NCBI GenBank assembly: GCA_963828255.1
Contig: CAWHDZ010000027.1
Location: 1-64,000 of the forward strand
Length of the DNA: 64,000 nt
Reading direction: 5' to 3'
From: an uncultured delta proteobacterium
Lineage (GTDB): Bacteria; Myxococcota; Myxococcia; Myxococcales; Anaeromyxobacteraceae
A program made the translations under genes and the position numbers. The notes under the pieces were generated by a model. The model was given only the letters and a program-made list of their open reading frames with translations, was not told the DNA's origin and searched no databases. Shown piece by piece: positions 17,546-64,000 of the stretch. How positions within the stretch are numbered: the first letter of the stretch is position 1; each line of letters opens with the position of its first letter.

Positions 17546-17547
17546 CG

Positions 17548-18852: not shown

Positions 18853-18870
18853 CGTCGATTCTCCTGAAGG

Positions 18871-26660: not shown

Positions 26661-26675
26661 AGGGAGCCCACACAC

Positions 26676-44635: not shown

Positions 44636-44645
44636 GCCGTCCCCG

Positions 44646-47254: not shown

Positions 47255-47418
47255 CGCGGACCCGGCTGGTGCACGCCCCGGACTCGGGCAACTGCACCTG
47301 CATCGTCGGCCCTATCTTGGGGACTTCAAAGCAATTTCCCGCTTCAGTCGGTTCCCTCCACGACCCGGAGCCGTGGCGACCATTGGCTCCACCCACCCAC
47401 CGCGCCGCACAGCGGGCC

Positions 47419-47559
47419 ATGACAGCGCCCATCGCGACATGGATCCATCGGGCCATGACCTCCATGTTCATCTTCACCGGTGGTGCAGTCGGCGTCCTTC
47501 TCGTCTCCTTCATCGTGGCCGAGGTGCGGGACGCGGCCCGCACGCGCCGCTTCCGCTGA
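47419..47559 (+). CDS. Small single-TM hypothetical protein
   Basis: Hydrophobic FIFTGGAVGVLLVSFIVA followed by a basic tail. Confidence 0.35.
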   Translation: MTAPIATWIHRAMTSMFIFTGGAVGVLLVSFIVAEVRDAARTRRFR

Positions 47560-47576
47560 GAGGCCCGGGAGACGGC

Positions 47577-49079
47577 CTACCCGCTGGTCGGCATGGCCAG
47601 CGTGGGGCGGCTCCCCTCCCCGGTCGAGGGCCACCGGCTCGTGACCGCCTTGGTGCGCGTGTAGAACTTCACGCCCTCCATGCCGTGGACATGAAGGTCG
47701 CCGAAGAGCGACTGCTTCCAGCCGCCGAACGAGAAGAAGGCCATGGGCACGGGGATGGCGACGTTCACGCCCACCATCCCCACCTGGACCTCGTGCTCGA
47801 AGCGCTGGGCCGCGGCGCCCGAGCCGGTGAAGATGGCCGTCCCGTTGCCGTGCGGGTTCCGGTTCACGAGCCCGATGGCCTCGTCGAGGGTGGTCGCCCG
47901 CACCACCACCAGAACCGGACCGAAGATCTCCTCCCGGTACACGGTCATCGCCGGGGTGACGTGGTCGAGCAGCGTGGGGCCGAGGAAGAAGCCCCCCTCC
48001 CCGCCCGGCACGCGCAGCGCGCGCCCGTCGAGGACGGCCTGGGCGCCCTCCGCCACACCCGCGGCGACGATCCCGCGGATGCGCTCCCGGTGCCCGGCGG
48101 TGACGAGCGGCCCCATCTCCACGCCGGCCTGGGTGCCCGGTCCCACGCGCAGCGCCGCCGCCTTCTCCCGCAGCCGGGCCACGAGCGGCCCGGCGACGTC
48201 GCCCACCGCGACCACCACCGAGATGGCCATGCAACGCTCGCCGGCCGAGCCGTAGCCCGCGCCGATGAGCGCGTCCGCCGTGAACTCCAGCTCGGCGTCC
48301 GGGAGGACCACCGCGTGGTTCTTGGCGCCCCCCAGCGCCTGCACCCGCTTCCCGGTGCGCGCCGCCGTCTCGTAGACGTGCCTGGCGATGGGCGTCGAGC
48401 CGACGAAGGAGACCGCGTTCACGTCGGGGTGGGCGAGGATGGCGCCGACCGCCTCCGCGTCGCCCGGCACGACGTTGAGGACGCCCTCCGGCAGCCCGGC
48501 CTCGTGGAAGATGCGGGCCATGGCGAGCGCCGTGGACGGGACCTTCTCCGAGGGCTTCAGCACGAAGGTGTTGCCGCAGGCGATGGCCACCGGGAACATC
48601 CAGAGGGGCACCATGGCCGGGAAGTTGAAGGGGGTGATGCCGGCGCAGACGCCCACCGGCTGCAACACGGAGTGTGAATCGACCCCCCGCGCCACGTCCT
48701 CGGCCCACTCTCCCTTGAGGAGGTGGGGCGCCCCGCTCGCGAACTCCACCACCTCGATGCCGCGCTGGACCGACCCGGCCGCGTCGGGGAGCGTCTTGCC
48801 GTGCTCCTGGGTCACGAGGCGGGCCAGCTCGTCCCGGTTGGCCTCGAGCAGCTCGCGGAAGCGCGCCAGGATCCGGGCGCGCCGGAGCGGCGGGGTGTCG
48901 CGCCAGCCGGGGAGCGCCGCCCGGGCCGCCGCCACCGCCAGTCCGACCTCGGCGACGCTCGCGAAGGGGGCGCGCCGGGTCACCTGGCCGGTGGACGGGT
49001 CGAAGACCTCGCCGCTTCGGCCGCTCTGCGAGGGGACTTCCTTGCCACCGATCCAGAGGGGGAGGACGGGCACGGTCAT
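47577..49079 (-). CDS. mmsA: CoA-acylating (methyl)malonate-semialdehyde dehydrogenase
   Basis: GITPFNFPAMVPLWMFP, RVQALGGAKNH, GSAGERCMA and FSFGGWKQSLFGD motifs. Confidence 0.95.
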   Translation of the reverse strand: MTVPVLPLWIGGKEVPSQSGRSGEVFDPSTGQVTRRAPFASVAEVGLAVAAARAALPGWRDTPPLRRARILARFRELLEANRDELARLVTQEHGKTLPDAAGSVQRGIEVVEFASGAPHLLKGEWAEDVARGVDSHSVLQPVGVCAGITPFNFPAMVPLWMFPVAIACGNTFVLKPSEKVPSTALAMARIFHEAGLPEGVLNVVPGDAEAVGAILAHPDVNAVSFVGSTPIARHVYETAARTGKRVQALGGAKNHAVVLPDAELEFTADALIGAGYGSAGERCMAISVVVAVGDVAGPLVARLREKAAALRVGPGTQAGVEMGPLVTAGHRERIRGIVAAGVAEGAQAVLDGRALRVPGGEGGFFLGPTLLDHVTPAMTVYREEIFGPVLVVVRATTLDEAIGLVNRNPHGNGTAIFTGSGAAAQRFEHEVQVGMVGVNVAIPVPMAFFSFGGWKQSLFGDLHVHGMEGVKFYTRTKAVTSRWPSTGEGSRPTLAMPTSG

Positions 49080-49118
49080 GGGACCGACATCCTAGCGCAG
49101 GCGCGCTATCCTCCGGCG

Positions 49119-49562
49119 GTGACCGACACCGCACGCCGCATCCCGCACGTCTTCCCCCGCAGCGAGCTGGCCTGGCTGCTCGCCCCCACCTACGCCGACT
49201 CGCTCGCCGTGGACGAGGAGATCGCCGTCGAGCGGCTCGGGCGCGCGCTCCAGAACCCGGAGATCCTGGCCGGGCTCCACGCGGCGCTCGCCGCCGCCCT
49301 GGAGGACACGCGGGGCCCCCGGACCGACTCCGAGGCCCAGATCGACCGGATCTCGAAGCGGCTCCAGACCCGCCGTTCCCGGGTCAAGCCGGCCGCCTCC
49401 ACGCCGGCGGTCTCTGCGGTCATGATCTGGCTGAACCTCGCCATCGGGATGGCGCCCGAGTCGATGCGGGAAACCCTCTCGACCGGCAAGGGCGCGGCCA
49501 TGCTCGCGACCGGCCTCCGCGAGGTGGCCGCGAGCATGGTGAAGGATTTGTCGCGCGGCTGA
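49119..49562 (+). CDS. Hypothetical protein
   Basis: GC3-rich ORF that fills the gap between the divergent and convergent neighbours. Confidence 0.65.
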   Translation: MTDTARRIPHVFPRSELAWLLAPTYADSLAVDEEIAVERLGRALQNPEILAGLHAALAAALEDTRGPRTDSEAQIDRISKRLQTRRSRVKPAASTPAVSAVMIWLNLAIGMAPESMRETLSTGKGAAMLATGLREVAASMVKDLSRG

Positions 49563-49590
49563 GCGCGGGAGGACCGGGCGCGGAGGCCGG

Positions 49591-50091
49591 CTACCCGACC
49601 TTCACGTACTTGCTCCGCGGCGCCCCGCAGATGGGGCACTTCTCCGGCGGCTCCCCGAACTCGACGTCGCCGCAGGCCGGGCAGAGGTAGACGTCCATCC
49701 TCGAGAGGTCCTTGCCGGACTCGAGCGCCGCGAGCGCCTCGGCGAAGAGCCGGGCGTGGACCTTCTCCGCCTCGTTGGCGAACCCGAGCATGGTCCTGGC
49801 CCGGTGCCCCTCTGCCTTGGCCTGCTCCACCATGGGCGGGTACATCTCGGTGTACTCGTAGGTCTCTCCGGCCACGGCGGCCTTCAAATTCTCGAGCGTG
49901 GTTCCCACGCCGCCCATGTTGCGCAGGTGGGCGTGGGCGTGGATGGTCTCGGCGTCGGCCGCGGCGCGGAAGAGCCGGGCGATCTGCCCGTAGCCCTCCT
50001 TCTCGGCGGCCTGTGCGAAGGCGAGGTACTTGCGGTTGGCCTGGCTCTCGCCGGCGAACGCGACGGCGAGGTTCTCCTGGGTGGTGGGCAT
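49591..50091 (-). CDS. rbr: Rubrerythrin
   Basis: AFAGESQANRKY, ETIHA, GETYEY, EKVH and C-terminal CPACG..CPICG. Confidence 0.95.
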   Translation of the reverse strand: MPTTQENLAVAFAGESQANRKYLAFAQAAEKEGYGQIARLFRAAADAETIHAHAHLRNMGGVGTTLENLKAAVAGETYEYTEMYPPMVEQAKAEGHRARTMLGFANEAEKVHARLFAEALAALESGKDLSRMDVYLCPACGDVEFGEPPEKCPICGAPRSKYVKVG

Positions 50092-50156
50092 GCAGCGACC
50101 TCTACCGTTCCCGGCAGAGGCCGCCCATGATCCCGGTCATTTCACCGCAACTGCCA

Positions 50157-50855
50157 TCAGGTCCGGAGGAAGCTCCGCGAGAGGGCCTTCCACTGTGCGT
50201 CGGTGAGGAGCGTGTCCGGTGAACCGACGAGCTCGCCGCCGTCCGCGGCCGCCATGCCCAGCTGGTCCTCGTAGAACCGCGTCAGCCGCTCCCCCTCCGC
50301 GCGCAGCCAGCTGCGGGCCCGCTCCCCGGCCGGGAGGGACTTCCACTCCAGGCCGATCGGCTCGATGGCGAAGAGCCACCCGTTGCCGTAGTTCTCGCTC
50401 TTGGCCAGGGTGGGCTCCCGGAGCACCTCCGGGTTCACCGCCACGATGCGCCCGGAGGCGGGCGCCGCCACCTGCACCTCGCGGTCGCCGCAGGAGAGCG
50501 TCGCCACCGGCTCCCCTTCCTTCACGAACTGCCCGGTCCGGGGCATCTCCACGGCCACGGTCCAGGGGAGGATGCGCTGGGCCAGGTCGTCGAGCCCGAC
50601 CTTGAGGGAGCCGCCCTCCGACTTCACCCAGGTGTGGCCCGGGGAGTAGGCGAGCCCACCGCGGAAGCGCAGGCTGCCCGCCGAGCGGTAGCCCTGCATC
50701 CACATCCGCACCGCGCCGAAGACCTTCCCGGCGCCCAGCACGAGCATCACGGGCGCCAGCAGCACGAGGGCGATGACGACCACGAGGCCGAGGCGGGTGG
50801 CCAGGCCGGCCAGGAAGACTCCAACGGTGGTCAGGGTGTCGATGAAGGCGGTCAT
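50157..50855 (-). CDS. Membrane-anchored glycine cleavage H-like protein
   Basis: N-terminal TM; GHTWV..VGLDDLAQ, APASGRIVAVN and YGNGWL motifs; no ESxK lipoyl motif. Confidence 0.85.
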   Translation of the reverse strand: MTAFIDTLTTVGVFLAGLATRLGLVVVIALVLLAPVMLVLGAGKVFGAVRMWMQGYRSAGSLRFRGGLAYSPGHTWVKSEGGSLKVGLDDLAQRILPWTVAVEMPRTGQFVKEGEPVATLSCGDREVQVAAPASGRIVAVNPEVLREPTLAKSENYGNGWLFAIEPIGLEWKSLPAGERARSWLRAEGERLTRFYEDQLGMAAADGGELVGSPDTLLTDAQWKALSRSFLRT

Positions 50856-50865
50856 GGCGGTCTCC

Positions 50866-51567
50866 TCACTCCTGCGTCCTGAAGAACTCCCGTGCGATCT
50901 CGTCCCAGTGCTCGGCGTCCAGCTCGCGTGCCATGCCGTGGAGCGGCGCACCGCCGTCGTGCATCGCCGGGGCGAGCGCCATCTCCGGCGCGAGCCGCAT
51001 GGTGAGCTTCCGTCCCTGCTCCTCCACCCAGTTCCTGGCGGCGTCGCCGGTGAGCAACTGGGCGGCGTTCTTGGCCCAGCGGGTGGGGCGCACCTTGAAG
51101 AGCCAGCCGTCGCCGTACGGCGTCGAGCCGTCGCGCGCCATGGCCGGGTTCGCGGCCACCACCTCGCCGTCCACCGGGGAGAGCAGCCCCACGCTCTTGC
51201 CGCCGGCCTCGAGCCTCACGGCAGCCGCGCCCTGCTCCACCATGCTGCCGGTCCTGGGCAGGTCGATCCCGTCCAGGGCGCCGATCATCCGGTGTCCGAG
51301 GTCGTCGAGCCCGACCGCGACGGTGCCGTCCTCCTCCATGCGCGCCCAGGTGTGCCCCGGGTGCAGCGCCACGTCGGCAGGGACCTCGAACCATCCGGCG
51401 GTGACGGCGCGGGGCAGCTCGGCCGCCTTGGCGACCACCGCCTTCGCGGCTTCCTGCCCGCCGTGGATGAAGCGCCAGAATCCGACGAAGAGGATGAGGT
51501 AAGCGACGGCCAGTCCGTACTCGACCAGCTTTGCGGAGTATCCGGTGAGGAATTCGTTTCCGTGCAT
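50866..51567 (-). CDS. Membrane-anchored glycine cleavage H-like protein
   Basis: N-terminal TM (AKLVEYGLAVAYLILFVGFW); HPGHTW..VGLDD, SPVDGEVVAAN and PYGDGWL motifs. Confidence 0.85.
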   Translation of the reverse strand: MHGNEFLTGYSAKLVEYGLAVAYLILFVGFWRFIHGGQEAAKAVVAKAAELPRAVTAGWFEVPADVALHPGHTWARMEEDGTVAVGLDDLGHRMIGALDGIDLPRTGSMVEQGAAAVRLEAGGKSVGLLSPVDGEVVAANPAMARDGSTPYGDGWLFKVRPTRWAKNAAQLLTGDAARNWVEEQGRKLTMRLAPEMALAPAMHDGGAPLHGMARELDAEHWDEIAREFFRTQE

Positions 51568-51599
51568 GGCGGACCCTGTGGTGGCGGCGGCGGGTGGTG

Positions 51600-51668
51600 C
51601 TACGGGATGCGGTTGAGGAAGGCGATGACGACGAGTCCGACGACTGCGAAGGCGGTGGCGGCGATCAT
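51600..51668 (-). CDS. 22-aa hydrophobic small protein
   Basis: AGGAG RBS; MIAATAFAVVGLVVIAFLNRIP. Confidence 0.5.
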   Translation of the reverse strand: MIAATAFAVVGLVVIAFLNRIP

Positions 51669-51732
51669 GGCGTGCTCCTGCTGGTGGTTCGGTTTGCTCC
51701 CGGTGGACCTTGCTTCGTCTGTTGAGTGCTTT

Positions 51733-51748
51733 CGCAACAGGTGGGCCA
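51733..51748 (-). promoter_or_regulatory. Putative sigma-54 promoter
   Basis: Minus strand TGGCCCACCTGTTGCG is TGGC-N7-TTGC (GG-N10-GC), upstream of the small ORF and the GcvH-like pair. Confidence 0.55.
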
Positions 51749-52252
51749 GATCCGGGGTCGCAGCACCCATCGGGAAAAACCTCCTCGTGGCGGATGCTTG
51801 GAACGTGCTCCGGCCGACGCCCCTCGGAGTGTTGAGAATCTGGTCGGTGAGGATTCCGACGCGAAATCCGGCCTGGATCGGTGTCAACCAACCGTGATCC
51901 GGGCGGGATCCAGCGCCCGGGCCCCCTTGTCACGAATTCCCACGACCCGGCGGGATTCTCGACACCTCGCAGGGGCGTAGGCGCTTTCCAGGGTTGGACT
52001 AGTGTGCCCGTTCGGGGGCGTGATGAAAAACAACGTGAAGATTGCCCTGACGCTGGCGACCGCTCTTGCCCTCTTCTACCTGGTGGTCCGATTCTTCCCT
52101 CTCGGCCGGTGACCAGGACGCGCCTTGACGCTGGAATGTGCTGGGGGACGCACTTTCCGATATCGGCCGACCGGGTCAATAAATGTCCACCCGGGGCGGG
52201 TCGCCTATACTCGACCTGATTTTCCATCTCGGCAGGCTGACCCAGGGGGACC

Positions 52253-53482
52253 GTGATCAACGAACGGGAGATCGCCGCGCTGGTGGCGCGTTTCGGCATG
52301 GGCAACCAGCTGAACGGCGGCCTCCTGCTGGTGGACGACGAGCCCAACAACCTGGTCGTCCTGCGCGGTTTCCTCGACGACGAGGAGCGCTGGCAGGTCC
52401 ACACGGCGGCCTCGGGCGAGGAGGCGCTCGCCATCGCGGAGAGGACGCCCCTCGACGTGGTGGTGACCGACCACCGCATGCCGGGGATGACCGGGGTGGA
52501 CCTGCTCGAGAAGCTCCGGCGCCTTCGTCCGGACGTGGCCGGCATCGTGCTGACCGGCTACGCCGACATGGACGCCCTCGAGGCTGCCATCAACCGGGCC
52601 GCGGCCTTCCGGTTCCTGCGCAAGCCCTGGGAACCAGCCGACATCCTCGAGGCCATCCAGCAGGCCAGCAACATGGTCTCGCAGCGGCGCATCATCGAGC
52701 GGCTGGTCTCCCTCCTCTCCGAGCGGGGCGAGATGCTCCGCGCCTCCTTCGAGGAGGTGAAGCGGCAGCAGCAGGCCCTCCTCCACCTGGAGCGGATCGG
52801 CACAGTGGGCAAGCTGGCCTCCGGCGTCACCCACGACCTGCGCAACATGGTGACCAGCCTGCGCGAGGCCGAGTACCAGCTCTCCCAGCACTCGGCCTCC
52901 CCCGAGCTGCGCGAGACCTTCACCCTGGGGCTCGCTCACGTCGAGAAGATCCTCTCCACCTTGAAGACGCTCCAGGATTTCGCCCACGCCGGGAAGCTGG
53001 AGATCGCGCGCGCCCCGGCCGACCCGGCCGACGTGGTGCGGGACGCCGTGACCATCTCCCGGATGGACCTGCACTTCCGCCTGCGGCGCCTCGTCGTGGA
53101 CGTCGCCCCGGATCTCCCTCCCCTCCAGGCCGACCGGCTCAAGCTGTCGCAGGCGCTCGTCAACCTGATCCAGAACGCGGTCCAGGCCACCGGCAAGGAC
53201 GCCACCGTGCGCATCGCCGCCCGGCCCGCCGACGGCGGCGTGGAACTGGCCGTGGAGGACGACGGACCAGGCGTCGATGCCGAGCTCCGGCCCCGCCTCT
53301 TCCAGCCCTTCGCCCCGGGCAAGGGCTCGCCCGGCCTGGGAATGGGGCTCTACATGGCGCGCCTCATCGTCGAGTCCCACGGGGGCTCCATCCGCCTCGT
53401 GGACCTGCCCGGCGGCGGCGCCCGCTTCGAGCTGCTCCTCCCGAACACCCCACCGTCGAGCCCTCCAGCCACACCCACCTGA
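52253..53482 (+). CDS. Hybrid REC-histidine kinase (PhcR-like architecture)
   Basis: LLVDDE, TDHRMPG, LTGYAD..AIN..FLRKPW; THDLRN; HATPase; no DNA-binding domain. Confidence 0.9.
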   Translation: MINEREIAALVARFGMGNQLNGGLLLVDDEPNNLVVLRGFLDDEERWQVHTAASGEEALAIAERTPLDVVVTDHRMPGMTGVDLLEKLRRLRPDVAGIVLTGYADMDALEAAINRAAAFRFLRKPWEPADILEAIQQASNMVSQRRIIERLVSLLSERGEMLRASFEEVKRQQQALLHLERIGTVGKLASGVTHDLRNMVTSLREAEYQLSQHSASPELRETFTLGLAHVEKILSTLKTLQDFAHAGKLEIARAPADPADVVRDAVTISRMDLHFRLRRLVVDVAPDLPPLQADRLKLSQALVNLIQNAVQATGKDATVRIAARPADGGVELAVEDDGPGVDAELRPRLFQPFAPGKGSPGLGMGLYMARLIVESHGGSIRLVDLPGGGARFELLLPNTPPSSPPATPT

Positions 53483-53526
53483 TCCTCCTCGAGCCTTCGT
53501 CCAGCGCAGACACCTCGCCCGTCACC

Positions 53527-55080
53527 ATGGAAAAGAAGACCACCATCAAGCTAGTCGAGCCCCCCGGGGAGGCCCCCTCCTCGCCCCTGCCGCTCGGGCC
53601 CCGTCCCCACCGTTACGAGGAGCTGGAAGGGGCGGAGGGGCGCGCCGTCTTCTTCCGCCCCCACCGCCACTCCGCCGCCGACCTCGAACCCCTGCGCGGA
53701 GTCGTCACGGTCAACGTGGACGGAGTCCGGCGCGAGTGCGCCGTCCTCGACGTCAGCCAGAACGGCGTGGCGGTGGCCTGGACGCACGGCCTGCCCGCCC
53801 GGAAGGGCAGGCTCGTCCCGGCGGTGCTCCGCTTCGACGCCCACCAGCCCTTCGAAGGCCAGGTCCGCATCGGGTCGGTCCGCGAGGCCGACGGTTCCAC
53901 CGTGGTCGGGCTCTCCTTCGACAACTTCCTCCTCGACGTGGAGGAGGTCCTCTCCCTGCGCACGGTGCGCGCCTGGGCGGCGGGCGCCGGGGGCGCCCGT
54001 GTCCAGGACAGACCCTGGGGCGTTTCCTCCGGGGAGCGCTTCCAGGCCCGTGTCGCCGAGCTCCGCATGCTGCTCGAGGACGGGCGGCAGCAGCTCGACG
54101 CGCTCGAGCGGCAGCTCCCCTGGCACGCCCTGCACGGACCGCTGAGCCCGGTCCTGGCCGCCCTGGAGCGGTCGCTCCGCGCGGGCTTCGTCCCGGAGTT
54201 CGTGCGGCTCACCGAGGCCATCGACGCGGAGATCCGCACCCTCCCCGGCGGCCACCGCAACGAGCAGGCCCGCCTGTGGGCGATGCGCAACCTCCAGGAG
54301 TTCCTCATGGAGTCTCCCGGACTCCGCCGCGCCTACGAGAAGCCCTTCGGCTACCCGGGCGACTACGAGGTGATGAACGCCATCTACGAGCGCTTCTACG
54401 AGGGCTCTACGCTCTTCGCCCGCTCGGTCGGCCTGGGATTCTCGGAGGCGCTCTGCTCCAAGGCGGTCCGCTTCCGCAAGGACCTGGTCAAGCGGCAGCT
54501 GAAGGCGCTCCTCTCCCGGCGGGCCGGGTCAACGGGGCCGGTGCGGGTGCTCTCCATCGGGGCCGGACCGGCCCAGGAGCTGCACGAGCTCTTCCAGGAG
54601 GTGGACGACCTCCCGGTGCCGCTCGAGGTGGTGCTCTTCGAGCAGGACAAGAACGCGCTGGCCCACGCCTTCCGGCGGCTCACGCCGACGGTGGAGGCGC
54701 GGTTCCAGGGGCGCGTCCGGCTCCTCTTCCTGCACGACTCCATCAAGCGGCTGCTGCGCGACGGCTCGCTCTTCGCCCCCTTCGGGAAGTTCGACCTGGT
54801 CTACTCCGCCGGACTGCTCGACTACCTCCAGCAGCGCACCGGCACGGTGCTCACCCGTCACCTGGCGGGGACCACGGCGCCCGGGGGGCAGCTCCTCATC
54901 GCCAACATGGTGGACAACCCGGCCCGCACGCTGCTTCAGGTACACCTCGACTGGGCGCTCATCTACCGGACCCGGGAGGAGCTCCTGGACATGGCCCACG
55001 CAGCGGTTCCGGGCGCGAGGGTCCGCATCCTCGAGGAGGAGAGCGGGGTCAACCCGTTCTTCGAGATCGTCCGCGGGTAG
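53527..55080 (+). CDS. PilZ-like domain plus class I SAM-dependent methyltransferase, PhcB-like signal synthase candidate
   Basis: DVSQNG (PilZ DxSxxG); RAYEKPFGYPGDYEVMNAIY; VLSIGAGPAQE; FDLVYSAGLLDYL; LDWALIYRT. Confidence 0.8.
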   Translation: MEKKTTIKLVEPPGEAPSSPLPLGPRPHRYEELEGAEGRAVFFRPHRHSAADLEPLRGVVTVNVDGVRRECAVLDVSQNGVAVAWTHGLPARKGRLVPAVLRFDAHQPFEGQVRIGSVREADGSTVVGLSFDNFLLDVEEVLSLRTVRAWAAGAGGARVQDRPWGVSSGERFQARVAELRMLLEDGRQQLDALERQLPWHALHGPLSPVLAALERSLRAGFVPEFVRLTEAIDAEIRTLPGGHRNEQARLWAMRNLQEFLMESPGLRRAYEKPFGYPGDYEVMNAIYERFYEGSTLFARSVGLGFSEALCSKAVRFRKDLVKRQLKALLSRRAGSTGPVRVLSIGAGPAQELHELFQEVDDLPVPLEVVLFEQDKNALAHAFRRLTPTVEARFQGRVRLLFLHDSIKRLLRDGSLFAPFGKFDLVYSAGLLDYLQQRTGTVLTRHLAGTTAPGGQLLIANMVDNPARTLLQVHLDWALIYRTREELLDMAHAAVPGARVRILEEESGVNPFFEIVRG

Positions 55081-57735
55081 ATGACGACCTCCGACTTCGA
55101 GATCGAGAGGAGCTGGGCCGCCTGGCGGCTGGGGCGCAATCGCCGCGGCCTGAAGGTCGGGCTCCTCTTCATGGTCACGCTGTACCCGGCCTTCGGCCTG
55201 CTCGACTGGGCGCTGGCCCCGCCCTCGGCCCTGCCCTGGCTCTGGGGGACGCGCGCCGGGATCGTCTCGCTCGCCATGGTCCTGCTCCTCCTCATGCGCA
55301 ACCCGCGCTTCGACCGCTGGGTGGACGCCGTGGCGGTGCTCTGCGGCTGGCTCGCCGGTGCGGGCATCAGCATCATGACGGCCTACATGGGTGGCCTGGC
55401 GTCGCCCTACTACGCCGGGCTCATCCTGGTGGTGCTGGCGGCCGGCCTGCTCTTCGTCTGGCCTCCGGTGCTGGTCTTCGTGACCTTGCTCGGGCTGGTG
55501 GCGTCCTTCCCGCTCGTCAACCTGGCGCTCGGGGCCGGAGGGGATCTTCACGTCGCCGCATCCAACATGACGTTCCTGTCGGCGACGGCCCTCATCGCCG
55601 GCGTCGCCCAGGTCCTGCAGTTCACCACGCTGCGCGAGCAGCACGAGCAGCGGCTCCGGCTCGAGGTCACCTCCCACAACCTGGAGCGGGCGCACACCAA
55701 GCTGCAGCAGCTCGACGAGTTCAAGTCGCGCTTCTTCGCCAACATGACCCACGAGCTGCGCACGCCGCTCGCCATGGTCGTCACCCCGCTCGAGCTGATG
55801 ATGCAAGGGGAGATGGGCGCATTCAGCGAGCCCCAGCGCAGCTCGCTCGCCACCATGTACCGGAGCGCGCTCAAGCTCCTGAAGCTCATCAACGACCTGC
55901 TCGACCTCTCCCGGCTCGAGGAGAGCCGGCTCCGCATCGACGTGAAGGAGCAGGACCTGGCCGCCCAGCTGCGCGGCCTCGTCGAGCAGACCGATGTGCT
56001 GGCGCGCCGCAAGCTGATCACGCTCTCCTTCTCCAGCGGGGACAGGCCGTGCACCGTCTGGTGCGACGCCGAGCGGCTGGAGCGGGTCTTCGTCAACCTG
56101 CTCTCCAACGCCATCAAGTTCACGCCCGTGAACGGACACGTCACGGTGGAACTGCGCGAACAGCCCGACGACGTCGAGGTGGTGGTCACCGACGACGGCC
56201 CGGGCTTCCCCCCCGACCGGGCCGAGCAGATCTTCGAGCGCTTCTACCAGGTGGACATGGCCGACCGGCGCGCCCACGGCGGCACGGGGATCGGGCTCGC
56301 CCTGGCCCGCGAGCTGGTGATGCTCCACGGCGGCTCCATCCGCGCCGAGAGCGACGGACGGACGGGCGCCCGCTTCACCGTCAAGCTCCCGAAGGGGCGC
56401 GGCCACTTCCGCCCCGAAGCCCTCGCCGAACCGCGGGACGCCGGGGAGGGGGCGCGGGGAGAGCCCGGCCTCGACTGGGCGGTCCAGCTCGCCGCCCGCT
56501 CCGAGTTCCGGCTGCTCGACATCGAGGAGGCCACCGAGCGGCGCGCCGTCGAGCGGGACACCGACGAGGAGGCCCGCCCGTACACGGCGGTGGTGGTCGA
56601 GGACCACCCCCACATCATCCAGCTCGTGCACATGTCGCTGCGACGCCAGTTCAAGGTGCTGACCGCCTCGGACGGGCTGAAGGGGCTCGACCTCGTCCTC
56701 CGGGAGCGCCCGAACCTGGTGGTCACCGACCTCATGATGCCGGGCATCGACGGCCTGGCGCTCACCCGCAGGCTTCGCGAGGAGCCGTCCACCCGCCACA
56801 TCCCCATCATCATGCTCACGGCGCGGGGGGAGCTCGACGACCGTGTGAAGGGGCTCGAGACGGGGGTCAGCGCCTACCTCACCAAGCCCTTCTCGCCGAA
56901 GGAGCTTCTCACCGCGGCGCGGGAGCTGGTCAAGGCGAAGGAGCAGACCGCCGATCTGGTGCTGACCCAGCGCATGGAGTCGCTCGAGATGGTGGCGGCC
57001 GGCCTGGCCCACGAGATCAACAACCCGCTCAACTACCTCAAGAACGCGCTGGGGCGGGTCCGGCTCGACGCCGAGAAGGTGCTGGGGCTGTGCGGTGAAG
57101 CGCGCGAGCGGCCGCTCGACCTTGCGGGACAGGCCCAGGTGGACCGGCTGGCGGCGCGGATCCGCGAGCTGCTCGGGGTGGCCGACTCCGGCGTGAAGCG
57201 CATCGGATCGACCGTCGAGCTGATGAGCCGCTACGGGCGGGCCGGCTACAAGCGGGAGATGGTGCCGCACGACGCCTGGGCGGCGGCCCACGCCGTGGTG
57301 GGGATCGTGCTCCCGGCCACCGGGCGCCACGTGAAGGTGGACCTCGACCTCGAGGGGGACGGCTCCCTCGAGTGCGTGCCCGAGGAGTTCAGCCAGGTCC
57401 TCTCCAACCTGGTCCAGAACGCCATCGAGGCGGTGCCCGAGGAGACGGGGAGGGTCCGGGTGCGGGGGCGCGTCGAGGACGGCGAGCTTCTGATCTCTGT
57501 GAAGGACAATGGGCCGGGGATCCCCCCGGAGGTGGTCCAGAAGCTCTTCACCCCCTTCTTCTCCACGAAGGGGCCGGGGAAGGGCGTGGGGCTCGGCCTC
57601 ACCATCACGCGCCGCGTGGTCCAGAGCCTGGGCGGCAGCCTCAACGTGACGAGCGCCGTCGGCCAGGGGACGGAGTTCCTGGTCCGCGTGCCGCGAACGC
57701 AGCCACGGCCGCGCGCGCTCCCCGCGCCGGGCTGA
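55081..57735 (+). CDS. Membrane hybrid sensor kinase: about 5 TM, HisKA-HATPase-REC-HisKA-HATPase
   Basis: FFANMTHELRTPL, GGTGIGL, TDLMMPG, YLTKPF, AHEINNPL and FFSTKGPGKGVGLGL motifs. Confidence 0.93.
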   Translation: MTTSDFEIERSWAAWRLGRNRRGLKVGLLFMVTLYPAFGLLDWALAPPSALPWLWGTRAGIVSLAMVLLLLMRNPRFDRWVDAVAVLCGWLAGAGISIMTAYMGGLASPYYAGLILVVLAAGLLFVWPPVLVFVTLLGLVASFPLVNLALGAGGDLHVAASNMTFLSATALIAGVAQVLQFTTLREQHEQRLRLEVTSHNLERAHTKLQQLDEFKSRFFANMTHELRTPLAMVVTPLELMMQGEMGAFSEPQRSSLATMYRSALKLLKLINDLLDLSRLEESRLRIDVKEQDLAAQLRGLVEQTDVLARRKLITLSFSSGDRPCTVWCDAERLERVFVNLLSNAIKFTPVNGHVTVELREQPDDVEVVVTDDGPGFPPDRAEQIFERFYQVDMADRRAHGGTGIGLALARELVMLHGGSIRAESDGRTGARFTVKLPKGRGHFRPEALAEPRDAGEGARGEPGLDWAVQLAARSEFRLLDIEEATERRAVERDTDEEARPYTAVVVEDHPHIIQLVHMSLRRQFKVLTASDGLKGLDLVLRERPNLVVTDLMMPGIDGLALTRRLREEPSTRHIPIIMLTARGELDDRVKGLETGVSAYLTKPFSPKELLTAARELVKAKEQTADLVLTQRMESLEMVAAGLAHEINNPLNYLKNALGRVRLDAEKVLGLCGEARERPLDLAGQAQVDRLAARIRELLGVADSGVKRIGSTVELMSRYGRAGYKREMVPHDAWAAAHAVVGIVLPATGRHVKVDLDLEGDGSLECVPEEFSQVLSNLVQNAIEAVPEETGRVRVRGRVEDGELLISVKDNGPGIPPEVVQKLFTPFFSTKGPGKGVGLGLTITRRVVQSLGGSLNVTSAVGQGTEFLVRVPRTQPRPRALPAPG

Positions 57736-57753
57736 TGGCGCTATGCTGCCGGG

Positions 57754-59091
57754 ATGCGGATCCCGGTCGCCCTGCTCGCGTCCCTCGCCGCGACCCTGTT
57801 CGTCGCCGCCTCCTGCTCGGGGAACAACCCCAGGCCGCCGCTCCTGGGCGCGGGCGGGTGGTCCTGGTCACCGGCCGTGGCGGGCGACCATCCGCTCCCG
57901 GTCCTGTGGTGGGGGAGCACGACCCCCTCGCCCCTCCCGCTCCTCGACGGCGGCGACTGCTCCGCGTCGGGCTCGGTCCAGGCTCTCGTGGCCGAGGTGG
58001 GCCAGCCCCTCGCCGTGGGGATCTCGGTGACCTGCGCGGGAGGCATTCCCGCCATGCTCCCCGTCGCCTGGCCCGGCGGCGCCGTTCAGGCCCTCCCGCT
58101 GCCGGCGGGGGCCACCCAGGGAACGGCGCTCGCGGTCGTGTCCCGCCCCGGAGCGACGCGGATCGCCATCCCAGACCGGTTCATCGGTGGCGCGACGGGG
58201 ACGACCTCACCCCGCCCGACGTTCTGGAAGAACGGCGCGGTGGTGGCATGGGACCCGACGGACCTGCTGCCCCCCGGCCACGACGCGGGGGTGGTGACCA
58301 GCATCGCGGCGACGGACCAGTTCGTGCTCGCCGCCGGCGTCGTCCACCGCACGGGGAGCTCTCCGCCGGCCTACTCCGGGATCATCTGGCTCTTCGACCT
58401 CGACTTCACCGCATCCACCTGGGAATTCCTCCCCCTGCCGACCGACGCCGGCGGCGCGAGCTTCGGCTCCTGGGTCTCGATGGTGATCGAGGGGACCACG
58501 ATCTGGTCGGCGGCCGCCATCTGGAACGCCGCCGCCGCGCCGAAGCCGGTGGTCTGGACGGACGACGTATCGGTGCCCTGGTTCGGGGTGGAGTTCGGGA
58601 CGGCCCCCTGGGCCTCGCCCACCGGCCTCTCGATGGTCGAACTCGTCCCCTACTCGAGCGGCTGGGTCCGAACGGCCTCCACGAGCGGACCGCCGCAGCC
58701 CGCCATCTGGGCAGGGCCCGTCCTGTCCCTCCTCCCCGCCGCCGACCCGTCGAATCCCATCGGCGCGGGCGAGTCCATCGCCATCTACCTCGAGGGGGCC
58801 TACGTGTCCGGTGAGAGCCTCGCCGGCGACCCTTCCAGCCCCTCGCGCAGGCTGGCCGTGCCCGCCATCTGGTCGAACGGGGCCCGGACCGATCTCGGCA
58901 CGCTCTCCGCGCCCGGAGCCGGTCCGGCCATCTCCGGACCGCTCTTCGGCTGGTGGCGCCTCCCCGGCACGCCCGTGACCTCCCCGCCCGACTGGCCCTA
59001 CCCGGGCGGCACCGGCGAGGTCCTCGATTCACTTCCCGTGTCGGCGGCCGGCTCGGGCGTGGCCCGGACGGTGGTCGCCGTCCCGCCCTGA
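57754..59091 (+). CDS. Hypothetical lipoprotein with repeated PxxW units (possible beta-propeller)
   Basis: Lipobox-like VAASC; repeats PVLW, PVAW, PTFWKNG, PVVW, PAIW and PAIWSNG. Confidence 0.65.
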   Translation: MRIPVALLASLAATLFVAASCSGNNPRPPLLGAGGWSWSPAVAGDHPLPVLWWGSTTPSPLPLLDGGDCSASGSVQALVAEVGQPLAVGISVTCAGGIPAMLPVAWPGGAVQALPLPAGATQGTALAVVSRPGATRIAIPDRFIGGATGTTSPRPTFWKNGAVVAWDPTDLLPPGHDAGVVTSIAATDQFVLAAGVVHRTGSSPPAYSGIIWLFDLDFTASTWEFLPLPTDAGGASFGSWVSMVIEGTTIWSAAAIWNAAAAPKPVVWTDDVSVPWFGVEFGTAPWASPTGLSMVELVPYSSGWVRTASTSGPPQPAIWAGPVLSLLPAADPSNPIGAGESIAIYLEGAYVSGESLAGDPSSPSRRLAVPAIWSNGARTDLGTLSAPGAGPAISGPLFGWWRLPGTPVTSPPDWPYPGGTGEVLDSLPVSAAGSGVARTVVAVPP

Positions 59092-59118
59092 CCGATCGGC
59101 CCGGGCGGCTCCGGACCG

Positions 59119-60483
59119 CTACTTCACCCAGACCGTCTTCACGTTGACGAAGGCCCGGATCCCCTCGAGCCCCAGTTCCCGGCCGTAGCCCGAGGTCTTC
59201 ACGCCGCCGAAGGGCAGGCGCGGGTCGCTCTTCACGAGCCCGTTCACGAAGACGGCGCCCGCCTCGATGCGCGGCACCAGCCGCTCGATCTTGGCCGGAT
59301 CCGTCGTCCACAGCGAGGCGCCCAGGCCGAACCGCGAGTCGTTGGCGATCTCCACGGCGTGGTCGGGCGAGTCGGCGCGGATCACCACCGCCACCGGCCC
59401 GAAGAGCTCCTCCTTCGCCGCCACGTTGCTGGTCTTCACGTCGGCCAGGATGGAGACCGGGTAGAAGGCGCCCGGGCCGGCGGGGATGGTGCAGCCCATG
59501 GCCGGGCGCGCTCCCTCGGCGATGGCCTGCTTCACCAGCTCGTGCATCTCGTCGCGCAGGTCGGTGCGCGCCTGCGGCCCGATGTCTGTGCCCGGCTGCA
59601 TGGGGTCGCCCACCTTGACCGCCTTCATGGCGGCGGTGAACTTCTCGAGGAAGGCGTCGTAGACCGCCCCCTCGACGATGAAGCGCTTGGCGCAGATGCA
59701 GCTCTGCCCGGCGTTGATGGTGCGGGCCAGCGCGCCCACCTTGGCGGCCTGGTCGAGGTCGGCGTCGGCGAGCACGATGAACGGGTCGGAGCCGCCCAGC
59801 TCCATGACCGAGGGCTTGAGCGCCTCGCCCGAGGCGGCCGCCACCGCCCGGCCGGCCGGTTCACTGCCCGTGATCGTGGCGGCGGCGATGCGCGGGTCGA
59901 GGATGATGCCGCGGACCGGCTTCGAGCCCACGAGGAGCGTGCGGAAGAGGTCGGGCGGGAAGCCGGCGTCGTGCATCAGCTTCTCGATGGCCAGCGCGCA
60001 CTGGGGCACGTTGGAGGCGTGCTTGAGCAGCCCTCCGTTGCCGGCCATGAGGTGGGGCGCGATGAACCGGAACACCTGCCAGTAGGGGAAGTTCCAGGGC
60101 ATCACCGCCAGGATCACGCCGATGGGATCGAAGCGGACGTAGGCCTGGCTCCCGTCGCTGGTCTCGGGGCGAGGGGCCAGGAAGACCTCGGCGTTCTCGG
60201 CGTAGTACTCGCAGACCCAGGCGCACTTGGTGGCCTCGGCCGCGCCGTCCTTCAGGGGCTTTCCCATCTCGATGGCGGCCAGCCGGCCCAGCTCGGGGGC
60301 CCGCTCGCGGAGCAGCGCCGCGACCTTGCGCATGGGGACGGCCCGCTCGGCGATGGGCACGCGCGCCCAGGCCCTCTGCGCCTTCGCGGCGGCGTCGAGG
60401 ATCCGGTCGACCTCGTCCTTGCCCATCTCGGGGAAGGTTCGGAGGACCTCTCCGGTGGTCGGGTTCAGGGATTCGATGGCCAT
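59119..60483 (-). CDS. NAD(P)-dependent succinate-semialdehyde dehydrogenase-like ALDH
   Basis: [38 protein letters not shown] and EELFGP motifs. Confidence 0.93.
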
Positions 60484-60502
60484 TGGGTTTCGTCCTTTCG
60501 GC

Positions 60503-61630
60503 TCAGGTGTGCGGCAGGAGCACCTGCCGCACGGCCTGGCCGGCGGCGAGGGCCTCGAAGGCTTCGTTGATCCGGTCGAGCGGCATCGACGCGCTCTGCA
60601 GCCGGTCGACCGGCATCCGCCCGGCCTTCCAGAGGGAGATGTACCGCGGGATGTCCCGCTGCGGGGCGGCCGATCCCATGTAGGACCCAACCAGGGACTG
60701 CCCCATCCCGGCGAAGTTGAGCGCGGGGAGCGACACGGTCCTGGTCGGATGGGGCAGCCCCATGGCGACCGTGGTCCCGCCCCGGCGGGTGGCCCGGAAG
60801 GCCGCCTCCAGGACGGAGGGCACGCCGGCCGCCTCGAAGGTGACCTCGGCCCCTCCGTGGGTGAGCTCCTTCACCCCCGCCTCTGCCTCGTCCGGCGAGA
60901 GCGCCGCGGTGGCGCCGAGCTGGAGGGCCAGCGCGCGCTTGGCCGCGACGGGGTCCACCGCGATGATGGGCCAGGCGTTCGCGACCACCGCCCCGATCAC
61001 CGAGGCGAGCCCGACGCCGCCCAGGCCGAAGATGGCCACCGACTGCCCCGGCCGCACCGCCGCGGTGTTGAGGACCGCTCCGGCCCCGGTGAGCACGGCG
61101 CAGCCGAAGAGGGCGGCGGTCTGCAGCGGCACGTCCTTCGGGACCACCACCGCCGACTCGCGCGCCACCACGGCGTGGCGGGAGAAGGCCGAGATCCCCA
61201 GGTGGTGGTGGATGGGCTTGCCGTCCTGGCCGGTGAGCAGCGGGCCCCCGTGGAGCAGGGTCCCGGCCCCGTTGGCCAGCGCGCCGGGCGTGCACAGGGC
61301 CGGGCGTCCCGAGGAGCACTCGGCGCAGGAGCCGCAGCTGGGGACGAAGGTCAGGACCACGTGGTCTCCGACCTTGACCTGCTTCACTCCTGGTCCGACC
61401 TCCTCGACCACCCCGGCCGCCTCGTGCCCCAGCGCCATGGGGAGCGGCCGGACCCGCGAGCCGTCCACCACCGAGATGTCGGAGTGGCAGACCCCGGCGG
61501 CCTCGATGCGGACCAGCAGCTCGCCGGCGCGCGGGGCGCCGAGCTCGACCTCCTCCAGCACCATCGGCTTCGACTCCGGGTACGGGCGCCTGTCGGTGAC
61601 GGCGCGGAGCACTGCGGCGACGGTCTTCAT
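60503..61630 (-). CDS. Zn-dependent alcohol dehydrogenase
   Basis: CHSD, GHEAAG, CGSCAEC..C, GCAVLTG and FGLGGVG motifs. Confidence 0.93.
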   Translation of the reverse strand: MKTVAAVLRAVTDRRPYPESKPMVLEEVELGAPRAGELLVRIEAAGVCHSDISVVDGSRVRPLPMALGHEAAGVVEEVGPGVKQVKVGDHVVLTFVPSCGSCAECSSGRPALCTPGALANGAGTLLHGGPLLTGQDGKPIHHHLGISAFSRHAVVARESAVVVPKDVPLQTAALFGCAVLTGAGAVLNTAAVRPGQSVAIFGLGGVGLASVIGAVVANAWPIIAVDPVAAKRALALQLGATAALSPDEAEAGVKELTHGGAEVTFEAAGVPSVLEAAFRATRRGGTTVAMGLPHPTRTVSLPALNFAGMGQSLVGSYMGSAAPQRDIPRYISLWKAGRMPVDRLQSASMPLDRINEAFEALAAGQAVRQVLLPHT

Positions 61631-61652
61631 GGTTCCCTTCCTTTCGCGGCGG

Positions 61653-62303
61653 TCAGGCGGCGGCCCGGGTCACCTGGCCGCGGTCGATGGCGTAGACGAC
61701 GTCGAGGAGCTTGCGGGAGTGGGAGAGATCGGACTCGGAGAGGATCACCGAGAGCCCCTCGGTGCGCAGCCTGGAGACCACCTCGGCGAGGCGCCCGGCC
61801 AGCACCGGCGCCACCCCCTCGAAGGGCTCGTCGAGGAGCAGGAGCTTCGAGCCGCTCATGAGGGCCCGGGCCAGCGCGGCCAGCTTCTGCTGCCCGCCGG
61901 AGAGCTGAAGACCCTTGCGCTCCTTCCACTGCCCCACCTCCGGGATCATCTCGTAGATGCGCCGGAGCCGCTCCTCCGGATGGGCCTGGCCCGCGGCCCA
62001 GGCCGGCAGGGAGACGTTCTCCTCGATGGAGAGCTGCGGGATGATGCGCCGGTCCTCGGGCATGTAGCCCATGCCGCCCCGGGCCCTCATGTAGGAGGGG
62101 ACTCCCTTCATGGGCGCCCCGTCGAAGGCGATGGTCCCGGCGGTGGGCTCGAGGATGCCCATGATGGCGCGCATGAGCGTGGTCTTGCCGGCGCCGTTGC
62201 GGCCGATGAGCCCGACCAGCTGACCGGGGGCCACGTGGAGCCCCACCCCGCGCAGGATGCGGACCGACTTGATGGAGACGTCGATCGACTCGATCGTCAG
62301 CAT
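61653..62303 (-). CDS. livF: Branched-chain amino acid-type ABC ATP-binding protein
   Basis: GRNGAGKTT, LSGGQQ and LLDEP motifs. Confidence 0.88.
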   Translation of the reverse strand: MLTIESIDVSIKSVRILRGVGLHVAPGQLVGLIGRNGAGKTTLMRAIMGILEPTAGTIAFDGAPMKGVPSYMRARGGMGYMPEDRRIIPQLSIEENVSLPAWAAGQAHPEERLRRIYEMIPEVGQWKERKGLQLSGGQQKLAALARALMSGSKLLLLDEPFEGVAPVLAGRLAEVVSRLRTEGLSVILSESDLSHSRKLLDVVYAIDRGQVTRAAA

Positions 62304-63070
62304 TGCGGGGCCTCCTCCGGCGCCTGTTCGCCCACCACCAGCCGGCGCACCTCGGGGTTCGAGAGCACGGCGGCCGAGTCGGCGTCGGCGATGACCTTGC
62401 CGTCGTAGAAGGCCACGATGCGCTGGGTGTAGCGGCGCACGATGTCCATGTCGTGCTCCACGAAGAGCACGGTGACCTTCTCGGCCCGGATGGCGCCGAG
62501 CACCAGGTCCATGAGCGAGAACTTCTCGTCGGCCGAGACGCCGCTGGTCGGCTCGTCGAGCAGCAGGATGGCCGGCTTCACCGCCAGCGCCATGGCGATG
62601 TCGAGCAGCTTGCGCACCCCCTCGGGAAGAACCGAGGCCGGCTCGTCGCGGTACGCGCGCAGGTGGAAGCGCTCCAGCATCTCGTCGGCCACCGACTCGG
62701 GGCGCGCCGTCCCCAGGTTGCTGCCCACGAAGGCCTTTCGTCCCATGGCGACGATGCCCAGGCCGACGAGCAGGTTCTCGTAGGCGGTGAGGGTGTCGAA
62801 GACCTGTGGGATCTGGAAGGACCGGCAGATGCCCAGGCGCGTGATGCGGCGCGGGGCCATCCCGGTGACGTCCCTGCCCTGGAACCGGACGGTCCCGGAG
62901 GTGGGCTTCAGGTAGCCGGTGACCAGGTTGAGGAAGGTGGTCTTGCCGGCGCCGTTGCCGCCGATGAGCCCCACCACGGTGTCCTCCTCGATGGAGAGGT
63001 TGATGTCGCGCGCCGCCGTCACCGCGCCGAAGGTCTTGGTGAGGCCGGTGGCCTCCAGGATCGGGCTCAT
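62297..63070 (-). CDS. livG: Branched-chain amino acid-type ABC ATP-binding protein
   Basis: GGNGAGKTT, RSFQIP, LLDEPT and VEHDM motifs; starts MSPILEATGL. Confidence 0.88.
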   Translation of the reverse strand: MSPILEATGLTKTFGAVTAARDINLSIEEDTVVGLIGGNGAGKTTFLNLVTGYLKPTSGTVRFQGRDVTGMAPRRITRLGICRSFQIPQVFDTLTAYENLLVGLGIVAMGRKAFVGSNLGTARPESVADEMLERFHLRAYRDEPASVLPEGVRKLLDIAMALAVKPAILLLDEPTSGVSADEKFSLMDLVLGAIRAEKVTVLFVEHDMDIVRRYTQRIVAFYDGKVIADADSAAVLSNPEVRRLVVGEQAPEEAPQC

Positions 63071-64000
63071 GACGCGGCCCTCCGGCGCCGCCTGAAGATG
63101 GACCAGAGCCCCTCGGGCAGGAAGAGGATCACCGCCAGCATGGCGCCCCCCATGACCAGCTGCCAGGTGTTGGGGGCGTGCTCGTAGGCGAAGCTGCGCA
63201 GCAGCTCGAGGAGCAGGGCGCCGGCGAAGGGGGCGGCCACGCTGGCGGTGCCGGAGAGGATGGCCACGAAGACGAATTCGCCCGAGGTGGTCCAGTAGGC
63301 CATCTCCGGGTCCACGTGCCCGACGGCGAGCGCCGTGAGCGCCCCGCCCACCCCGGCCAGCGCCGCGGCGATGACCAGGTTCAGGTGGACCACGTTGCGG
63401 ACCGAGGCGCCCATGTACTCGACGCGCAGCTCGTTGTCGCGGACCGCCGGGGCGAGCCGCCCCAGGTAGGTGGAGAGGTAGCGGTCGAGCCCCACCGATG
63501 CGCCGAAGGCGCAGAGCGCGGCCATCGCGTACACGCCGTAGCGCCCCAGGCTGCTCGTGGCCGGCAGCCCGAAGACGGTCCGGGGCGCGACGTTGAACCC
63601 GTCGGTGGAGCCGAGCGCCGAGGTCTTCACCAGGAGTCCGTAGAGGATCATCGAGAAGGCCAGCGAGAGCATGGCGAAGAAGATGGCGCGGTACCGGGCC
63701 AGCAGGACCCCCAGCACCGCGGCCACCAGCGCCGCCATCAGACCGCCGAGCAGCACCATGGGCACTGCGTCGCGCACCTGGAGGACGTTGGCCGTCACCC
63801 CGGCGGTGTAGGCCCCGGCAGCGAAGTAGAGCCCCTGCCCGAAGGAGACCAGGCCGGTGCGCATGAGCAGGAGCAGCCCCAGCGCCACGAGCCCCTTGGC
63901 GATGGCGATGGTGACGAGGAAGAGGGCCCACTTGGGCAGGAAGGGCGCGAGCAGCCCCAGGACGAGCAGCGCGATGCCCAGCCCCAGCGTGGTGCGTCGG
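63067..64000 (-). CDS. livM: Branched-chain amino acid-type ABC permease; 5' end beyond the window
   Basis: GLVSFGQ, FAMLSLAF, AVRDNE and ILFLPEGL motifs. Confidence 0.88.
   Translation of the reverse strand, partial: RRTTLGLGIALLVLGLLAPFLPKWALFLVTIAIAKGLVALGLLLLMRTGLVSFGQGLYFAAGAYTAGVTANVLQVRDAVPMVLLGGLMAALVAAVLGVLLARYRAIFFAMLSLAFSMILYGLLVKTSALGSTDGFNVAPRTVFGLPATSSLGRYGVYAMAALCAFGASVGLDRYLSTYLGRLAPAVRDNELRVEYMGASVRNVVHLNLVIAAALAGVGGALTALAVGHVDPEMAYWTTSGEFVFVAILSGTASVAAPFAGALLLELLRSFAYEHAPNTWQLVMGGAMLAVILFLPEGLWSIFRRRRRAAS

Follow-up and report, generated by a model that had tools for sequence, protein, structure and literature searches.

A Phc-like methyltransferase and sensor kinase locus with a PilZ domain in an uncultured member of the Anaeromyxobacteraceae

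The three-gene module

The DNA described here, referred to as the window, is a stretch of 64,000 nucleotides from an uncultured delta proteobacterium (GCA_963828255.1, contig CAWHDZ010000027.1, positions 1 to 64,000 of the forward strand). Towards its right end lie three co-oriented genes, here named R, B and S, that encode a REC-kinase, a methyltransferase dependent on S-adenosylmethionine (SAM) and a membrane sensor kinase. They recall the phcBSRQ genes of the Phc system, whose only characterised members, in Ralstonia and Cupriavidus, secrete a methyl ester and sense it in a density-dependent manner (PMC6989110, PMC11960443, PMC10653808). The module is likely, with a probability of roughly 0.6, to be a circuit driven by a self-made signal: B would make a methylated small acid, and S would sense it in the membrane and relay the information through its two kinases and R. 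The target would lie elsewhere, since no DNA-binding output is encoded in the locus. The principal features are as follows.

52253..53482, + strand: R, a REC-HisKA-HATPase protein without a DNA-binding domain, 409 residues, GTG start, with D73 and H194
53527..55080, + strand: B, a PhcB-homologous class I SAM methyltransferase of 517 residues, made of an N-terminal arm, a PilZ barrel, a helical linker and the methyltransferase
53653..53937, + strand: PilZ domain of B, residues 43-137, with F43-R44-x-x-R47 and D75-V-S77-x-x-G80
54340..54378, + strand: KPFGYPGDYEVMN motif of B, residues 272-284, family-wide
55081..57735, + strand: S, a six-helix PhcS-type membrane sensor followed by kinase 1 (H224), REC (D550) and kinase 2 (H644), 884 residues
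55081..55695, + strand: PhcS-type membrane sensor domain of S, residues 1-205, with D42, R58, G105 and S108-x-YYAGL conserved in the alignment

This layout agrees with the first-pass annotation, which had described three genes on one strand in a myxobacterial type of host. Open reading frame (ORF) and Pfam analysis found all three: R consists of REC and HATPase domains, with no DNA-binding domain found; B carries the KPFGYPGDYEVMN motif that had been noted; and S, with six hydrophobic segments followed by HisKA-HATPase-REC-kinase, starts directly after B, the stop codon of B (TAG, 55078-55080) abutting the ATG of S at 55081. A 965-residue frame at 52183-55080 was rejected as a gene; the homologues begin at the ATG at 53527.

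The nearest named homologues place the host in the Anaeromyxobacteraceae. The closest of them is 95% identical and comes from an uncultured Anaeromyxobacter metagenome-assembled genome, while close homologues of B in cultured, non-pathogenic species are found in A. paludicola (62%) and A. oryzae (59%). The host genome is 99% complete with 6.6% contamination, and three of its contig pairs (C33/C7, C37/C4 and C11/C1) give identical matches, which suggests duplicated assembly segments.

Enzyme, sensor and their linkage

The Phc references were the plasmid operon of Paraburkholderia graminis, whose last REC gene is a listed PhcQ homologue, Cupriavidus PhcB records and 120 PhcS-like proteins, with no R. 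solanacearum sequence; PhcB of C. taiwanensis (P0272, holding CAQ70526.1) is a listed PhcB homologue (both listings in PMC6989110, Fig. S1). PhcB loci were the best 80 of at least 573 from a metagenome scan.

The methyltransferase had been proposed to be a relative of PhcB, and hidden Markov model (HMM) and sequence comparisons bear this out. B is 31% identical to C. taiwanensis PhcB over 271 residues (E = 5e-32) and matches a PhcB profile with a probability of 100 over 393 columns, from residue 98 to its C-terminal end. Among the 25,686 stop-to-stop ORFs of its own genome, B is the sole match to a PhcB profile (E = 9e-37). The JGI name “EF 3-hydroxypalmitic acid methyl ester biosynthesis protein”, an automatic annotation, is attached to 30 of 120 listed close homologues. 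The sequence KPxGYxGD, put forward earlier as a hallmark of PhcB, is indeed present in Cupriavidus PhcB, but it is family-wide, and G-Y-x-G-D occurs in 19 of 19 short relatives that have no abutting sensor. Because these sensor-less enzymes share it, the motif alone is no marker of a quorum-sensing synthase, and it was rejected as diagnostic of one.

The likeness of S to PhcS, also proposed earlier, was upheld for the membrane domain when profiles were compared both ways. A profile of the PhcS membrane domain placed S first among the same ORFs (E = 0.001, the next at 0.7). Conversely, a profile built from 30 S-type domains, none of them canonical PhcS, recovered every one of the 120 PhcS domains with E < 1e-5, with S as the only match in its own genome, and hhalign gave a probability of 99.2 over 194 columns. 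The six hydrophobic segments lie within residues 23-181, leaving hardly any periplasmic domain, and all three phospho-sites (H224, D550 and H644) are intact. Residues 1-215 gave no Pfam match at E up to 10, MASE8 (PF20968) included, nor did a genome search; the MASE8 label is precomputed on most PhcS homologues, and C. taiwanensis PhcS itself gave no Pfam match.

The two sensors differ in what follows the membrane domain. PhcS is a simple transmembrane kinase of about 445 residues, whereas S is a transmembrane kinase-REC-kinase of 884, the second kinase (H644) being nearer to that of PhcS than the first is. Long sensors of this kind occur in eight loci at 41-49% to PhcB (L120, L124, L125, L128, L129, L133, L134 and L139), and their REC-kinase halves form one clade with that of S, with a support of 95 in the Shimodaira-Hasegawa-like approximate likelihood ratio test (SH-aLRT). 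An enzyme tree was made from the last 300 residues of 105 enzymes by a quick IQ-TREE run (LG+G4, SH-aLRT only, midpoint root), with settings that apply to the other trees as well. Canonical PhcB is nested in it among loci that have the long sensor, and this tree, made without an outgroup, suggests that PhcS is a shortened form.

R had been taken for the counterpart of PhcR. The architecture stands, a REC-kinase without a DNA-binding domain and with D73 and H194 intact. However, R falls into a clade of its own, not joined to PhcR, in a tree with few unrelated controls, and it ranks fourth of 75 own-genome matches to a PhcR profile, in which S comes first. No LysR-type gene was seen among the Pfam-scanned flanking genes, and no search aimed at PhcA was made. 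In some phc operons, a single REC domain, about 134 residues long, stands in the place of PhcR (L006:9187-9591, also L071 and L078).

B is present in 12 of 13 other genomes of the genus. Of the 21 close loci apart from that of the window, all 21 have R upstream of B and 20 have S downstream, the contig of the last ending inside B; since this order is kept, the grouping of R, B and S is not a matter of chance. Wider loci were picked from the upper and middle parts of the match lists, not at random. The gene directly after the enzyme encodes a sensor in 25 of 29 close loci, in 42 of 47 loci of the second tier and in 73 of 80 PhcB loci, but in none of 26 loci of the short relatives; in six of the seven PhcB loci without one, fewer than 200 bases of contig are left. 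Of 401 Myxococcota genomes searched, 400 were counted (G215 was left out). Where the match to B is strong (E of about 1e-40 or lower), 90 of 93 genomes have the sensor; where it is weak, 9 of 84 do, and of the genomes without any match, 18 of 223. In these counts kin are not independent, and the sensor profile included linked sensors. A lack of linkage to such kinases in other genomes had been named in advance as evidence against a Phc-type system; the synteny survey found the linkage clearly conserved.

The output behind the sensor is swapped between loci and may be a kinase, a kinase-REC-kinase, a SpoIIE phosphatase or an adenylate/guanylate cyclase; in Rhizobium, a divergent GGDEF-EAL protein has a weak sensor match (E = 1e-4). 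Sensor clades mirror enzyme clades with five changes, the minimum, and with r = 0.92 on 78 pairs, the highest of 2,000 permutations reaching 0.09. The mirroring holds even for paralogous pairs within one genome. Sequence comparison thus far establishes homology, linkage and co-divergence of B and its sensor, and a cognate synthase and receptor would be expected to show just this, a sensor that stays by its enzyme while the output changes.

One clade of PhcB-like enzymes (L051, L052 and L172-L206; 21 tree rows) has the same sensor behind it, here in fusion with a SpoIIE/PP2C phosphatase, and L052 also has an adjacent SiaC-like gene.

That the enzyme is merely co-inherited beside, or regulated by, an ordinary hybrid kinase would fit the abundance of REC-kinase hybrids in the genome, as seen in the 75 matches to the PhcR profile, and the four close B homologues that adjoin other regulators. 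This reading is nevertheless very improbable, given that B keeps the same rare membrane domain behind it across about 30% identity and with no fewer than four types of output.

The PilZ domain and a possible mechanism

No solved structure resembles B by sequence (best E 0.21), and NCBIfam has no model for it. In an AlphaFold model (mean predicted local distance difference test score, pLDDT, 85; residues 1-45 of low confidence), B comprises a barrel of six strands, a helical linker and a class I methyltransferase. The barrel corresponds to a PilZ domain that had been missed earlier (PF07238, residues 55-137, 24 bits against a cut-off of 22.5), modelled with strands at 58-131 and a C-terminal helix at 138-153 in a block with pLDDT 84-96 over residues 51-150.

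Two motifs, RxxxR and [D/N]hSxxG, together define binding of cyclic diguanylate (c-di-GMP) by PilZ domains (bioRxiv 10.1101/814665). In a census of 121 close rows, the second, as DhSxxG, is intact in 120, the remaining row having a gap. R44 and R47 are likewise present in 120 of 121, but every one of the 120 has F or Y at position 43, so that RxxxR is only half present; R39, found in 119 of 121 rows, might stand in for the missing arginine. The full RxxxR is seen in a more distant group (L046-L049). B thus shares the six-strand barrel, the C-terminal helix and the intact [D/N]hSxxG with PilZ receptors such as YcgR, MrkH, Alg44 and MapZ, and differs from them in having F/Y-R-x-x-R as its first motif and in the fusion of its PilZ in cis to a methyltransferase, MapZ acting on CheR in trans.

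PhcB itself appears to have a related N-terminus. The first 120 residues of a PhcB that is 89% identical to that of C. necator (L060) were modelled, and the top 12 rows of a fold search with this model are all PilZ domains, the best being MrkH (Z 9.9, root-mean-square deviation (rmsd) 3.2, 89 aligned residues), with the first non-PilZ row at Z 7.8. Foldseek agrees on PilZ, although only at E 0.003. The modelled barrel lacks both PilZ motifs, and what is predicted for the N-terminus of PhcB is a PilZ barrel devoid of them. The likeness to the PilZ domain of B is drawn from the fold search, since sequence barely links the two (hhalign probability 10.6; iterated HMM E 0.001-0.04). A change of PhcB R22 to Cys alters quorum responsiveness (PMC6989110), and in the model R22 falls on a strand of the predicted barrel.

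A stand-alone PilZ gene with the full RxxxR adjoins short PhcB-like methyltransferases that have no membrane sensor (L053:6538-6825, L210:6467-6763, L213, L215 and L229). It is convergent in L053 and L210, and a DUF2378 gene is present in L053, L210 and L221. Judged by gene neighbourhood, this is a second, independent association of PilZ with such enzymes.

CheR is a methyltransferase that acts on chemoreceptors, and B might, like CheR, act directly by methylating or binding S, with PilZ as a built-in switch in the manner of MapZ and no small molecule involved. The tight translational coupling of B and S would suit this, as would the PilZ helix of MapZ, which binds the methyltransferase CheR (bioRxiv 10.1101/814665). 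ImcA (PA1851), whose membrane domain (PDB 8WCN) is weakly related to that of S, is also controlled by protein contact. Such direct action is still quite unlikely. B is not CheR-like (best match E 0.2, in the SAM region only), and its model finds its best fold matches in 3ocj, a Bordetella protein that is uncharacterised (Z 19.9, rmsd 2.9, 250 aligned), and in methyltransferases of small molecules. Moreover, the membrane domain stays with B while the cytoplasmic output is swapped, and PhcB makes a small molecule.

B could alternatively serve as an intracellular gauge, methylating a membrane or metabolic acid whose product S reads inside the same cell as a measure of lipid state, SAM supply or c-di-GMP, with no signal between cells. 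In its favour, the PilZ domain speaks for an input from inside the cell, a sensor with so little outside the membrane could read a ligand within it, and such sensors occur in 18 of the 223 genomes that have no B match. This explanation is unlikely, however, because the only characterised members secrete their methyl ester and sense it by density, as noted above.

Several observations weigh against a self-made signal read by S. Canonical PhcB (21 rows) has 78 invariant positions, of which B keeps 47%, no more than the sensor-less short relatives (49%). In the enzyme tree, B sits in its own 21-row clade (SH-aLRT 100), far from the 22-row canonical PhcB clade (100), the tree leaving the deep order open; the possibility that the enzyme clusters away from PhcB, raised at the outset as a point that would tell against the proposal, is thus partly realised, in that B is separate from canonical PhcB though homologous to it. 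The family of B is a large one, with 4,126 clusters at E <= 0.001, some members have no sensor, and the substrate of B cannot be fixed from sequence. PhcQ was not found in the genome, where a profile of its C-terminal part gave a best E of 0.2, compared with E < 1e-40 in canonical loci. The close B homologues L238, L241, L242 and L244 have no adjacent sensor, and G287 has none genome-wide with the query used. Co-divergence could also be expected from mere co-inheritance in an operon. The sensor family weakly matches ImcA over 178 positions (E = 0.0012), and in ImcA the six-helix domain is needed to bind a partner protein; ImcA shares with S six helices before a signalling domain, but has a GGDEF output regulated by a partner protein, with no synthase reported in the part of the source consulted. 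In Ralstonia, deletion of phcS alone has little effect, and signal perception there is left open (PMC13532016, PMC11960443).

If the self-made signal is accepted as the working model, B would methylate a small, probably fatty-acid-type, acid. Methyl esterification turns an acid neutral, and by analogy with PhcB, the SAM-dependent reaction would make the product diffusible as well. Its chain length and hydroxylation probably differ from those of the methyl esters of 3-hydroxymyristic and 3-hydroxypalmitic acid (3-OH-MAME/PAME). The product would then reach the six-helix sensor of S and change its kinase activity. From the domain architecture, kinase 1 (H224) may pass phosphate to the internal REC (D550), which would control kinase 2 (H644), and R, through D73 and H194, would be the next relay or a brake. 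More speculatively, the PilZ domain would let c-di-GMP tune synthesis by B.

A bolder version can be offered only tentatively and is, on balance, doubtful. It takes B for an autoinducer synthase under direct gating by c-di-GMP, and the pair of B and sensor for a modular cell-cell signalling family that roughly a quarter of Myxococcota genomes possess, with kinases, phosphatases and cyclases as its outputs. On this view, Phc of Ralstonia would be a derived form with a shortened sensor and a motif-less PilZ barrel that holds the signal-altering R22C site of PhcB.

Flanking DNA and significance of the module

Upstream of R, an AT-richer leader had been described. The GC content is indeed lower (0.63-0.64, against 0.67-0.78 in other bins of 44000-64000), but the region is not a plain leader: it is a 685-base divergent intergenic region common to the module and a GcvH-like gene, and it contains two short ORFs. 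Two further features lie outside the module proper.

52157..52211, + strand: candidate upstream elements, CCGATATCGG palindrome at 52157-52166 and TATACT, a -10-like hexamer, at 52206-52211
57754..59091, + strand: lipoprotein-like ORF, 445 residues, co-oriented, genus-specific, outside the conserved module

In an upstream alignment of eight correctly placed rows (the misplaced row L247 was left out), the CCGATATCGG palindrome and the hexamer are conserved in 8 of 8, the palindrome with one change in two rows, and the R start and the purine-rich site preceding it are kept. The palindrome and hexamer make a candidate promoter, although a sigma-70 consensus scan that included them called none. 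Of the two short hydrophobic ORFs, that at 51600-51668 (- strand, 22 residues) is conserved in seven of the eight rows and that at 52023-52112 (+ strand, 29 residues) intact in five. An Rfam scan of 50000-60000 gave two chance matches only, so that a riboswitch in the leader is unsupported. Metatranscriptome contigs from three runs in three studies fall on all three genes at about 88-99% identity; these are contigs of relatives that may derive from DNA and do not reveal strand, level or whether there is a single transcript, and they were not counted as evidence.

On the other side of the intergenic region, divergent from the module, tandem GcvH-like genes with N-terminal hydrophobic extensions (50160-50855 and 50869-51567, - strand) are followed by rubrerythrin, an arrangement kept beside the module in several loci of the genus. 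The lipoprotein-like ORF lies downstream of S in 7 of 7 wide loci of the genus and in none from other genera; it was found in 13 of 13 same-genus genomes, including one without B (G011), and in 0 of 47 others. It matches nothing in Pfam or the PDB and nothing convincingly in the Atlas, where the nearest clusters are unnamed Bacteroidota proteins at 0.91, which is weak evidence. Further left, a membrane dCache-GGDEF-hemerythrin gene (44646-47254, - strand) is apparently split in three frames (46106-47254, 45435-46310 and 44646-45419), either a pseudogene or an assembly error. Tandem WYL-domain genes (40585-42533, +), ethanolamine ammonia-lyase (30088-32228, +), isocitrate lyase and malate synthase (24414-28976, +) and a Cus-type efflux operon (14264-20178, -) are ordinary by Pfam.

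With Phc of Ralstonia, Cupriavidus and Paraburkholderia, the module shares a PhcB-homologous enzyme followed directly by a kinase whose six-helix sensor is homologous too, and a REC-kinase without a DNA-binding domain. It differs in the 31% identity and separate clade of its enzyme, in its longer sensor, in having R, whose clade is not joined to PhcR, upstream of the enzyme, in the PhcQ not found, and in the DhSxxG kept by B and absent from PhcB. Its host also differs, belonging to the Myxococcota, whereas a survey which covered Proteobacteria, and so says little about Myxococcota, had the phc cluster in Betaproteobacteria only (PMC10653808). The separate enzyme clade, the PhcQ not found, the place of R in a clade not joined to PhcR and the presence of the KPxGYxGD motif in sensor-less relatives led to rejection of the locus as canonical Phc. 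It is likely to resemble Phc in its working and, to judge from its distant homology to PhcB and PhcS, is of the same general kind.

Reviews describe Phc signalling as unique to the Ralstonia group (PMC11298618). In the literature searched by title and abstract opening, a scope that leaves PhcB biochemistry papers outside, neither a phc-like locus in Myxococcota nor a PilZ domain on PhcB is described. With a PilZ barrel on the synthase, intact enough in B for the purpose but degenerate in PhcB, it can be tested directly whether c-di-GMP is linked to signal output. If the module makes a signal, methyl-ester signalling would extend to the Myxococcota, the Anaeromyxobacteraceae would gain a candidate density-sensing system, and there would be a family of synthase-receptor pairs whose products are still to be identified.

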